IMG/VR virus record: IMGVR_UViG_3300032280_000442
Coordinates: 224,001-288,000 of that record
Source: a virus
Taxonomy: Duplodnaviria; Caudoviricetes
Length of the DNA stretch: 64,000 bases
Direction: 5' to 3' (one strand)
Shown here piece by piece: positions 13,792-16,681 of the stretch. The first letter of the stretch is position 1. Each line of letters starts with the position of its first letter. The notes beneath the pieces are model-generated. The model worked only from the letters and a program-made list of their open reading frames with translations, made no database searches and was not told the origin of the DNA. The translations under genes were made by a program, and so were the position numbers.

Positions 13792-14424
13792 ATGACAAAC
13801 GAATTAAGTTTAATGGAAAAATTAGCGGTATCCAAAAAAATAATGGACGCCCATAATAGAATACCAACAGGTGGAGCATCACAATCAATGGGGTCTTATA
13901 ATACGCCTATGGTTGAAAATTACGAACCAGTAAAAGCTTCTTATAATATACCTCAAGAATTATTACAAGAATCTGAAATAAACCAACCATATTTATCATC
14001 AATACCAAAAACTCCATCTGCACCACAACCATTAACAAGTGATAGAGTTATGGCATCAAAATTACCTGACGCAATTAAAAGATTAATGATTGAACACCCT
14101 ATTGAAATTCCAAACTCAATGGGAGGTGGTGGTTCTGTATTATCAGATGAATTAGTTGAAAAAGCAACTAGATTGATGAATACAGATGCTAGAGGAAATC
14201 AAGTTAATCAACCAAAACAAGTTGTTAGAGAACAATCCCCTATACAACAACCTCAAGTTAATAATAAACAATTACGTGAAATGTTAAAAGAAGTTGTAGA
14301 GGAAGTCTTACAAGAAAACGGAATTTTATCAGAATCAGAACAAAAATCAAACGAAGTCTTTTCTTTTAAAGTAGGAAAACATATATTTGAAGGTAAGGTT
14401 ACTAAGATAAAAAAAATCTCTTAA
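13792..14424 (+). CDS. Hypothetical phage protein
   Basis: 210-aa ORF followed by an intrinsic terminator. Confidence 0.75.
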   Translation: MTNELSLMEKLAVSKKIMDAHNRIPTGGASQSMGSYNTPMVENYEPVKASYNIPQELLQESEINQPYLSSIPKTPSAPQPLTSDRVMASKLPDAIKRLMIEHPIEIPNSMGGGGSVLSDELVEKATRLMNTDARGNQVNQPKQVVREQSPIQQPQVNNKQLREMLKEVVEEVLQENGILSESEQKSNEVFSFKVGKHIFEGKVTKIKKIS

Positions 14425-14444
14425 CTTTATTTACTCTCAAGATT

Positions 14445-14474
14445 AACCCCTTTCTACCAAGATTGGGGTTTTTT
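14445..14474 (+). terminator. Rho-independent terminator
   Basis: AACCCC...GGGGTT stem followed by a T-run, 20 nt after the stop at 14424. Confidence 0.7.
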
Positions 14475-14508
14475 ATTTTAAAATAGTTTCCTTTTGATTA
14501 AACCGGTA

Positions 14509-14516
14509 TATTTATA
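14509..14516 (+). promoter_or_regulatory. Putative late-promoter motif TATTTATA
   Basis: Lies 17 nt upstream of ATG 14534. Confidence 0.55.
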
Positions 14517-14533
14517 TAATAAAAAATTATGTT

Positions 14534-15448
14534 ATGGATATTAAAACTGAAAAAAAAATTATCTCCGAATATAAAAAGGGAAAAAGTAGTTTAGACATTG
14601 TTAAAATTGTTGGTTTATCAAAACCTACAATCCTTAAAGTATTAAACAAACATAATCTCGTTAGAAAAAGAGATAGATGTTCCACATTAGATATTAAAAA
14701 AGAGGGGGAAAGATATTATATAACTCGTAAATGCCCTAAATGTAATAAAGACATTAAAACAACTTCAAAAGATAAAGTAATTGCGTGTAGGAATTACTTT
14801 AACGCAATTAATAGCCATCATAATTGTGTTAAATGTATGTCAGAATCATTTATTGGGGAGGGAAATCATTTCTTTGGTAAAACACATACCAAAGAAAGTA
14901 TTAAAAAAATGTCTAAAAGTAAAACAGGTCAATATACCGGAGACAAAAACCATATGAAACAAGAAAAATATCGTCAAATGAGTAGAGATATTATGAGGTC
15001 AAATTGGGATAACGGTATTTTAGATAGAAAAGTCATTTCAGAACAAATGAAACAAACTCAGAGAAGTGGTAAAATTAAATCCGGTATAATATCAAAAAGA
15101 GAAAAAGAAATTGTTAAAGAAATAAAACAATTGGGTTATAAACTAATTCATTCATATCGTGTTGATACTAAAATTTGTGATGTATACATACCATCATTAA
15201 ATTTAATTATCGAATATTTTGGTGACTATTGGCATTGTAACCCCAAAAAATACGAATCGGATTTTTTTAATAAAAAAAAGGGTAAGTTTGCTTGGGAATT
15301 ATGGGATTATGATAAAAAGAAACTTGAATTAATCAAAAGTTATGGTTATAATTTAGAAGTTGTGTGGGAGGGTGACCTTAAACTCAACAATAAATTAATA
15401 GAAATCATAATAGAAAACTATGTCACAAAACTCACTTCAACGCCCTAA
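14534..15448 (+). CDS. Free-standing homing endonuclease (HTH + CxxC Zn finger + NUMOD3 + Vsr/DUF559-like nuclease)
   Basis: N-terminal HTH-like segment, CPKC/CVKC, GEGNHFFGKTHTKESIKKMS (NUMOD3), C-terminal CDVYIP..NLIIEYFGDYWH...GYNLEVVWE. Confidence 0.8.
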   Translation: MDIKTEKKIISEYKKGKSSLDIVKIVGLSKPTILKVLNKHNLVRKRDRCSTLDIKKEGERYYITRKCPKCNKDIKTTSKDKVIACRNYFNAINSHHNCVKCMSESFIGEGNHFFGKTHTKESIKKMSKSKTGQYTGDKNHMKQEKYRQMSRDIMRSNWDNGILDRKVISEQMKQTQRSGKIKSGIISKREKEIVKEIKQLGYKLIHSYRVDTKICDVYIPSLNLIIEYFGDYWHCNPKKYESDFFNKKKGKFAWELWDYDKKKLELIKSYGYNLEVVWEGDLKLNNKLIEIIIENYVTKLTSTP

Positions 15449-16681
15449 CGGTCAAGAAAAGATTAGCGTACTTGTACTGCCATCTGACCGTACGGGCGTT
15501 GGTTAAATCAAGGTAAATTTAGGTCAGTTGACCCCCACGTATTCCTACAAAACCTGTATCCGGATGACTTCCACGTAGATATTGACTACGAACCACAGAT
15601 AAATAATGTCGAATATTGGAAAAAATATCAGATAGTTCACGCTCACAGAACAATTGGGCAAGATTATAATATCGCACCTCAATTAATTGAATGGTTAAAA
15701 TCAATTGGTATTATTGTTATTATTGACCTTGATGATTATTGGTTACCAACTAAGGAACATCCAATACATAATATTATTGTTAAACATAAAATTGATGAGA
15801 AAATTAAGGCAAACTTAAAAGTTGCGTCATATGTAACAACCACTACGGATATTTTTGCAAATGAAATTAAAAAATTAAACAAAAATGTTATTGTATTTCC
15901 AAACGCAATTAATCCAAAAGAATTACAATTTAATCAACCAACACCTCCATCAGATAAAATTAGAGTAGGATGGTTAGGTGGTTCATCTCATTTACACGAC
16001 TTAGAATTACTTGGCGGGTTTGTACAAAAAAATCAAGATATTAACGATAAATTACAATACGTTATTTGTGGGTTCGATACAAGAGGGACTGTTACGGAAA
16101 TTAACCCACAAACAGGAGAAGAAAAACAAAGAGATATTTTACCTCACGAAACAGTGTGGGCTCGTTATGAAGAGATTTTTACCACTAACTATAAGACAAT
16201 CGATGATGACTATAAAAAGTTTTTATTAGAGTTTAAAGAAGGTGAATACAATTCAGGAAATAATTTACCATATGTTCGAGTTTGGACTAAACCTGTTACT
16301 ACTTATGCTATGAATTATTCAAAATTTGATATATCTTTGGCACCAATTAAAAACCATATTTTTAATGTAATGAAATCTCAGTTAAAAGTGATTGAAGCTG
16401 GATTTTATAAAAAAGCGTTAATTGCGTCTGAGATTGGTCCTTATACAATTGATTTAGTTCATTGTTTAAAAAATGGTGAGTTTAATGAAGAAGGTAACGC
16501 TATTCTAATTCCTGAAAATAGAAATCATAGTGATTGGGCTAAATCGATTAAGAAATTGGTTCAAAATCCTGAAATGATTAAAGTATTGGGTGAGAGATTA
16601 TATAATACCGTTAAGGATAAATACGATTTAAATATTGTAACAAAAAATAGAGCAGAATTTTACAAATCTTTAATAAAATAA
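15420..16681 (+). CDS. GT-B fold glycosyltransferase split by an 11-nt insert (15504-15514); ~416 aa if the insert is bypassed, otherwise a pseudogene
   Basis: ATG 15420 gives MSQNSLQRPNGQEKISVLVLPSDRTGVG*. The -1 frame continues KFRSVDPHVFLQ...IIDLDDYW...VFPNAI...RVGWLGGSSHLHDL, open through the track ORF 16154-16681 (DISLAP...FNVMKSQLKVIEAG), and has no start codon before 16154. Confidence 0.8.
15437..15502 (+). other. GC-rich RNA hairpin ending on the putative take-off codon
   Basis: CAACGCCC (15438-45) pairs with GGGCGTTG (15494-501) and ACGGTCA (15448-54) pairs with TGACCGT (15485-91), separated by a 2x2 internal loop. Confidence 0.7.

Follow-up and report, generated by a model that had tools for sequence, protein, structure and literature searches.

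To our knowledge, programmed translational bypassing in bacteria and phages is established essentially only for the T4 gene 60 family, and for that family it is still disputed what pairing of the mRNA behind the ribosome does. The mitochondrial byps of Magnusiomyces capitatus are 27-55 nt long, longer than the 2-10-nt gaps described below, and we know of no endonuclease associated with them. In T4 gene 60 the gap holds a take-off stem-loop and a mini-Shine-Dalgarno (mini-SD) sequence ~6 nt 5' of the landing codon; pairing of the mRNA on the exit side of the ribosome has been proposed as the forward driver (10.1101/2024.12.09.627546), and clades of the family do not share a conserved 5' stem-loop (10.1101/2022.08.31.505936). 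A 2016 review knew of no natural in-frame stop-hop (PMC5009743). Here we analyzed a 64,000-nt stretch of Caudoviricetes DNA (positions 224,001 to 288,000 of IMG/VR record IMGVR_UViG_3300032280_000442; hereafter the window), in which a homing endonuclease gene runs into the start of a glycosyltransferase (GT) gene, the GT reading frame is broken by an 8-nt coding gap and a GC-rich hairpin ends at the codon just before that gap. The hairpin is real and under selection for pairing. It probably helps the ribosome make a short hop, through refolding where the mRNA leaves the ribosome, and it travels in a homing-endonuclease cassette.

The elements of the locus, in window coordinates, are as follows.

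15437-15454, + strand: 5' arm of the hairpin, with a 9-bp outer stem, one 2-nt side of an internal loop and a 7-bp inner stem (RNAfold, repeat search)
15455-15484, + strand: apical region of the hairpin, 30 nt
15485-15502, + strand: 3' arm of the hairpin, encoding S-D-R-T-G-V-G, its last two bases being bases 1-2 of the take-off codon
15501-15503, + strand: putative take-off codon GGT (Gly28), with a stop directly 3' of it; the matching codon downstream restores the GVGKFR of gap-less relatives
15504-15511, + strand: coding gap TAAATCAA, 8 nt, opening with the stop TAA (15504-06)
15512-15514, + strand: putative landing codon GGT, exactly where tblastn similarity to gap-less GTs starts
15420-15503, + strand: GT open reading frame 1 (ORF1), ATG plus 27 codons in frame 0, the final codon being the take-off codon (translation)
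15512-16681, + strand: GT ORF2, frame 2, 389 codons plus stop
14534-15448, + strand: free-standing homing endonuclease gene, 304 aa, with an N-terminal helix-turn-helix (HTH), zinc ribbon and NUMOD3, and a C-terminal PD-(D/E)XK/Vsr-like nuclease

An earlier note, made from the letters of this DNA, had proposed that 15438-15454 pairs with 15485-15501 and that a U-G pair at 15437/15502 extends the stem. A repeat search and RNAfold both place the stem there: the inverted repeat has 17-nt arms that are 88% complementary and 30 nt apart, and in the predicted fold a 2x2 internal loop (15446-47 / 15492-93) separates an outer stem of 9 bp, which takes in U15437-G15502, from an inner stem of 7 bp. Local GC content at the hairpin is 42-45%, compared to 20-37% in flanking 100-nt windows. 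The native 78-nt fold has a minimum free energy (MFE) of -27.3 kcal/mol, and we compared it with protein-preserving recodings in which 26 codons were resampled under three codon-choice controls. Mean MFE was -18.1 kcal/mol for uniform synonymous choice (z = -2.5; 6/500 at least as stable), -11.8 kcal/mol for genome codon usage (z = -5.25; 0/500) and -16.1 kcal/mol for GC-matched recoding (z = -3.7; 0/300), the native fold of the window being more stable than the recodings under every control (z -2.5 to -5.25). For ten other alleles, the same three controls gave z-scores from -1.35 to -7.9, with L094 the weakest.

Using GT and endonuclease searches of viral and metagenome contigs, we recovered distinct alleles of this gene start, 26 of them gap-bearing and 27 gap-less. 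The gap-bearing relatives are related uncultured lake jumbo phages, and the gap-less alleles read MKEKINVLVLPSDKTGVGKFRSVDPH without a break. The same long hairpin was present in 26/26 gap-bearing alleles (MFE -23.1 to -35.6 kcal/mol over 78 nt) and in 0/27 gap-less alleles (MFE -2.8 to -12.1 kcal/mol), the two ranges being disjoint (Mann-Whitney p = 4e-10). The earlier note had placed the stem end inside the take-off codon, as is the case in the window, and in all 26 alleles the helix has its 3' end between -2 and +1 nt relative to base 1 of the take-off codon. Per-sequence folds add short apical helices in most clades (AGAU/AUCU and GAGUA/UACUC), which are weaker in the window; the second apical helix is 66-69% paired across alleles.

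Compensatory changes are present throughout the two arms. Facing segments read GCCC/GGGC in the window, CCCCUG/CAGGGG in L040, CAACCCCGG/CCGGGGUUG in L044, CUCCGG/CCGGAG in L072 and CUCCAG/CUGGAG in L173. Swapping arms among eight clade representatives weakened the mean MFE from -31.2 to -22.6 kcal/mol, and only 2 of 20,000 permutations were as good as the native pairing. Both sides have changed at 10 of 21 3'-arm columns (for example, CG, UA, GC and AU at a single column); among the covarying columns are third positions of the Gly and Thr codons, and base 1 of the take-off codon itself covaries (C-G, U-G and, in the AGC allele, U-A). Of 413 pairs, 42 are G-U, which indicates RNA on the sense strand. 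In a covariance-model alignment confined to the cassette, 73.1% of cells were paired versus 33-45% with partners slid, and cells in which both partners had changed numbered 18, against 7.6 in shuffles (0/500). These figures are conservative because the helix register differs by 1-3 nt between clades, which is also why RNAalifold did not recover the helix from a gap-free, codon-anchored alignment. Pair counts were diluted on that codon-anchored alignment and on a mixed alignment with gap-less and minus-strand matches, and we therefore added the arm-swap test, per-sequence partner tables and the cassette-only covariance-model alignment. The recoding tests, the covariation and the gap-only occurrence together bear out the view, already put forward in the earlier note, that this is a selected structure and not the by-product of a random insertion.

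The 5' arm sits in an N-terminal extension of 11 or 12 codons (ORF1 codons 2-12 in the window) that is specific to the cassette and absent from every allele without an endonuclease. Among gap-less alleles, only L068 and L069 keep an extension, and theirs are AT-rich. In the 3' arm, SDR in most cassette alleles, against SDK (AAA) in most gap-less alleles, makes the codons GC-rich. At 15489-15491 and the homologous codons, within SD(K/R)TG, this appears as Arg (CGN) in most cassette alleles and Lys (AAA) in most gap-less ones; from the codons compared, the Lys-to-Arg replacement appears to have been selected to strengthen the RNA helix.

The gap itself follows one layout in 26/26 gap-bearing alleles: a Gly (once Ser) codon, an immediate stop (TAA, TGA or TAG), zero to seven more bases and, just before AAR-TTY (K-F), a Gly (Ser) codon that matches the first. 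Take-off and landing codons pair as GGT/GGT, GGT/GGC, GGT/GGA, GGC/GGT, GGC/GGA or AGC/AGC. Gap lengths across the family are 2, 3, 6, 8 (the window), 9 and 10 nt, every gap opening with a stop codon or forming one, with all three frames represented; 20 alleles have gaps of 2-3 nt and six have gaps of at least 6 nt. The in-frame form, in which codon, stop and matching codon follow one another, occurs in 18/26 alleles and not in the window, whose hop would be 11 nt long and out of frame. The window's gap TAAATCAA contains no G, no Gly codon, no SD-like motif and no possible internal helix. The insertion site corresponds to Gly18 of the gap-less protein, gap-less relatives reading MKEKINVLVLPSDKTGVGKFR unbroken at the counterpart of ORF1. 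Take-off lies 81 or 84 nt from the ATG in every clade, and tblastn similarity starts at query residue 9 in 33 of 35 loci.

Several other routes to ORF2 were considered and rejected. Internal initiation is ruled out, there being no ATG, GTG or TTG in the ORF2 frame before 16154 (214 codons), and a readthrough fusion of endonuclease and GT is ruled out by a frame-2 TAG at 15464-66. Reassignment of a stop codon is ruled out by the occurrence of TAA, TGA and TAG at the site, by gaps that are not multiples of three and by the genome's genes, which end in TAA. For a programmed -1 or +1 frameshift, GTT GGT TAA offers no X XXY YYZ or CUU-U-type slip site, and the structure lies 5', not 3', of the site. 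Across the family, homologous alleles would need a -1 shift, a +1 shift or the passing of an in-frame stop; frameshift and readthrough are disfavored because three different mechanisms would be needed at homologous sites and the matched codons would go unexplained. A peptidyl-tRNA hop would explain all gap lengths and the matched codons, and would restore the native GVGKFR.

A few alleles are informative about the codons involved. In the allele shared by L173, L174 and L217 the gap is 10 nt long, TGAATTTAAA, and puts two in-frame stops between GGC and GGA; a +1 reading would encode EFKG instead, a difference that would discriminate a hop from a frameshift. In L010, L011 (L048, L049) and L069, the endonuclease is present, there is no gap, and a Ser codon (TCG or TCA) replaces the Gly18 codon (GVSKFR), which may be another route of escape from cleavage by the resident endonuclease. 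Ser is tolerated at the Gly18 position in these alleles (compare the AGC/AGC hop allele, L051). The phage carries 19 tRNAs, including a tRNA-Gly(UCC) at G000:C1:1381-1455, outside the window. Take-off codons in the family are GGU or GGC and some landing codons are GGA, and the candidate hopping tRNA-Gly would be the host GCC species or the phage UCC species reading all GGN.

The proposed mechanism takes the cassette to be the homing endonuclease gene, a recoded and N-terminally extended GT start, and a short gap opening with a stop. A ribosome translating the first 28 codons would melt the hairpin. Once GGT (15501-03) occupies the P site and TAA the A site, the 5' arm would already be outside the ribosome and the 3' arm would lie in the mRNA exit path. 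The helix would then re-zip on the emerging mRNA, pulling it forward and resisting backward sliding onto the Gly codon 6 nt upstream, and each base of forward sliding would allow one more pair. Peptidyl-tRNA-Gly would quit GGT, pass over TAAATCAA and re-pair with GGT at 15512-14, and decoding would restart at AAA to yield the normal ...GVGKFR... enzyme. The Gly codon 6 nt upstream of take-off, GGC 15495-97 in the window, is always inside the stem. Both the hop itself and its promotion by exit-side refolding are what we infer from this arrangement. The analogy drawn in the earlier note, to the gene 60 5' stem-loop that promotes take-off, fits the tie to the take-off codon and the gap-only occurrence, though the helix here abuts that codon.

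To gauge the pairing gained over the hop, we used a simple exit-zipper model with the mRNA exit boundary assumed at -13. The gain was -17 kcal/mol for hops of 11-12 nt (11 nt in the window) and -15 kcal/mol for a 9-nt hop. Several observations count against a hop driven by refolding. In the same model, the gain before landing is only -1.4 to -8 kcal/mol for hops of 5-6 nt, most of the outer stem forming once the ribosome has landed; the geometry therefore suits the long-gap clade better than the short-gap clades, and helix length does not scale with gap length. Translation across the gap is a prediction from sequence in every member. Because the cassettes are homologous, the perfect association of hairpin and gap represents few independent events and long maintenance, not 26 origins. 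Shuffles that preserve dinucleotides single out the window's own sequence only moderately (z = -1.83, 12/200 for 161 nt; z = -2.75, 2/200 for 111 nt). And the gene 60 analogy points to an element whose importance in T4 is itself uncertain, the 5' stem-loop being unconserved between clades of that family. For short hops, blocking of backward re-pairing onto the upstream Gly may count for more. Gap losses number at least two to three on the midpoint-rooted tree.

The best-surviving alternative, which we consider unlikely, is that the hairpin does some other RNA-level job in the endonuclease-GT transcript, such as stabilizing or processing the mRNA, spacing or slowing ribosomes, or tuning GT initiation, and that the gap co-occurs with it as part of the same cassette. 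The data do show selection for pairing and not function; the helix begins 15 nt after the first base of the GT ATG, near enough to affect initiation; and the short-hop clades, as above, gain little before landing. The distribution of the hairpin points the other way. On the endonuclease tree (midpoint root, for drawing only), gap-less lineages that bear the endonuclease fall at three places, namely L068/L069, L178/L181 and a short-endonuclease clade, and folds of these three lineages gave no hairpin, even in L068/L069 with their N-terminal extension; L178/L181 keep a GC-rich relic of the 3' arm and have lost the 5' arm. Conversely, L001 has lost the endonuclease by internal deletion and retains both hairpin arms, identical to the window's base for base, together with the 8-nt gap. 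The hairpin therefore follows the gap, not the endonuclease. An Rfam scan of 14300-15800 at E up to 10 returned no match near gathering score, and no intron (including group I), riboswitch or other family; a terminator scan of 14300-15700 gave no terminator-like site, the sequence directly 3' of the helix being GUUAAAUCAAGG and not a terminator-like U tract.

Less probable again is the idea that there is no RNA function, and that the GC-rich recoded 5' end reflects self-protection from the endonuclease, reduced homology with targets or a GC-richer donor, with the GT inactive or made by frameshift or readthrough. The recoded region does differ from gap-less alleles at many synonymous sites, as expected of a homing cassette, and the T4 bypass insert is accompanied by sequence divergence around the MobA site (10.1101/2022.08.31.505936). 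However, if immunity were the reason for the recoding, neither co-varying complementary arms nor G-U pairs confined to one strand would be expected. Nor does the GT look inactive: ORF2 is intact in 12/12 gap-bearing loci checked (open for 388-424 codons), with dN/dS ~0.1, as in gap-less alleles. Frameshift or readthrough would again call for three mechanisms and would leave the matched flanking codons, including AGC/AGC, unexplained.

The earlier note had also offered a switch that couples endonuclease termination to GT expression, a proposal that did not survive comparison across clades and that we now regard as very unlikely. It rested on the endonuclease stop TAA (15446-48) sitting at the 2x2 loop, and the first two bases of the stop do lie in that loop in the window and likewise in its closest relatives; ribosomes translating the endonuclease must also open the outer stem. 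However, this position is not kept across clades, where the stop lies 16, 37, 46, 55 (the window), 67 or 73 nt upstream of take-off and either precedes the helix or falls within its internal loop, apical loop or 3' arm. L001 carries the window's hairpin arms without a functional endonuclease ORF. The alternative pairing of CTGACC (15484-89) with GGTCAG (15522-27), described as mutually exclusive with the main stem, exists in the sequence but is not above chance, occurring only in the window and L001 among the 26 gap-bearing alleles. Judging from these loci, the hairpin is independent of the endonuclease gene and of its stop position. Least credible of all is that the inverted repeat works at the DNA level, whether by forming a cruciform or by serving as a site for recombination or nuclease recognition: a 17-nt inverted repeat does adjoin a nuclease gene, but 42 of 413 pairs are sense-strand G-U, which on the opposite strand or within a cruciform would become A-C mismatches, and the expected endonuclease target, the gap-less allele, is without the repeat.

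A second, smaller structure follows the landing codon.

15522-15533, + strand: small GGTC-AGTT-GACC hairpin, present in the RNAfold prediction and not specific to the cassette

It was listed with the main stem in the earlier note and is indeed in the sequence, but GGTC-N4-GACC is found in 4/26 gap-bearing versus 7/27 gap-less alleles, is no more frequent than chance would give and is not a cassette feature. Where it accompanies a gap (the window, L001, L037 and L173), it lies 7 nt after the landing codon, about at the mRNA entrance after landing. It is present in four of the six alleles with gaps of at least 6 nt and in 0/20 alleles with 2-3-nt gaps, three of the four cases belonging to one clade. 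This distribution may be chance, or the element could be a weak forward barrier for longer hops.

The source genome is that of a complete uncultured jumbo phage (308,574 bp, direct terminal repeats, 31.5% GC), and the 308.6-kb sequence contains a single endonuclease copy and a single match to the hairpin. The last 29 nt of the endonuclease gene overlap the GT gene start, and the endonuclease's relatives occupy the same position 5' of the same GT. By Pfam, the endonuclease matches NUMOD3 (3e-8) and, weakly, HTH_7, a Zn ribbon and REase_MTES_1575, with no HNH domain; in PHROGs it matches HNH/homing endonuclease families, and a profile match was obtained to the I-TevI DNA-binding domain (1i3j). 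Its nuclease domain carries the motif GDYWHCNP, and its C-terminal part resembles Tenacibaculum phage genes annotated as 'VSR endonuclease'. ORF2 matches the PHROGs glycosyltransferase phrog_7162 (5e-41); the top GT match is in an uncultured 735-kb phage (33% identity), and the GT relative searches returned no relative from a cultured phage.

Upstream of the cassette, 14446-14476 reads AACCCC-N14-GGGGTT followed by a T run, just 3' of the gene at 13792-14424, and looks like the intrinsic terminator of that gene. The terminator scan did not call it because the loop is long, and the region gave weak Rfam matches to terminator-containing sRNAs. The 5' flank of the endonuclease (14490-14533; TTGATT ... 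TATATAAT ... ATG) is kept in the window, L001 and L016, all three of the cassette loci aligned. From this conserved flank, the endonuclease therefore seems to have been inserted between the GT promoter region and the GT coding start, and the two genes are probably co-transcribed.

The GT cassette provides a family independent of T4 gene 60, with a gap too short for any in-gap signal and with a single conserved RNA feature, a covarying helix whose end falls at the take-off codon. It also forms a natural allelic series (gaps of 2 to 10 nt, three stops, several codon pairs, and lineages lacking both gap and helix) suited to reporters that test exit-side refolding as the driver and director of hopping. 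We give roughly even chances to a broader reading, namely that hairpin, stop and matched codon make up a minimal portable hop module, that exit-side refolding is the main driver of natural 5- to 13-nt hops, and that homing endonucleases use the module, as a third route alongside introns and inteins, to enter essential coding sequence and leave it functional. If true, this would supply the first natural stop-hops as well as a natural allelic series for the 'exiting-mRNA driver' model. The locus suggests that homing endonucleases can hide in coding sequence by means other than introns and inteins, and automatic annotation will label such genes broken. In our literature searches, neither bypassing in a phage glycosyltransferase nor this cassette family turned up in any publication.

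Compared to the known systems, the GT cassette most resembles T4 gene 60/MobA. In both, an untranslated insert interrupts a phage enzyme gene at a conserved Gly codon, with a free-standing homing endonuclease just 5' of it, a stop immediately follows the take-off codon, and the Gly take-off and landing codons match with third-base latitude. Both cassettes bring a recoded 5' coding region with an added N-terminal extension, in both the endonuclease can go while the bypass element remains (10.1101/2022.08.31.505936), and in both a helix 5' of take-off is the proposed forward driver, through pairing of the exiting mRNA (10.1101/2024.12.09.627546). By gene content and layout, the GT cassette is nonetheless not a member of that family. 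Its host gene is a GT, with insertion at Gly18, whereas in T4 it is the topoisomerase II large subunit (Gly46/Asp45); its nuclease is of the NUMOD3 plus PD-(D/E)XK/Vsr-like type, whereas MobA is HNH. The gap is 2-10 nt compared to ~50 nt in T4, and there is therefore no room for an A-site take-off stem-loop or mini-SD. The nascent chain is only 28-29 residues long at take-off, unlike in T4 gene 60. The 5' helix abuts the take-off codon instead of lying 9 nt upstream, and it is the most conserved RNA feature of the cassette, in contrast to the unconserved T4-family stem-loop.

The byps of Magnusiomyces capitatus are more distant, being numerous per genome, reliant on relaxed mitochondrial decoding and apparently independent of mRNA context (PMC5009743). 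Synthetic stop-hops in Escherichia coli are closer: matched codons flank a stop, 9 nt yield one amino acid, just as the GGT-TAA-GGN and GGC-TGA-GGT alleles are built here, and the trigger is a slowly decoded stop in the A site (PMC5009743). Those hops are of low efficiency, in artificial constructs without stimulators (PMC5009743), whereas the GT site is a conserved natural one in a gene that purifying selection maintains, with a 5' hairpin dedicated to it. The hop proposed for the window, at 11 nt and out of frame, would be a longer relative of the stop-hop and not a strict stop-hop.

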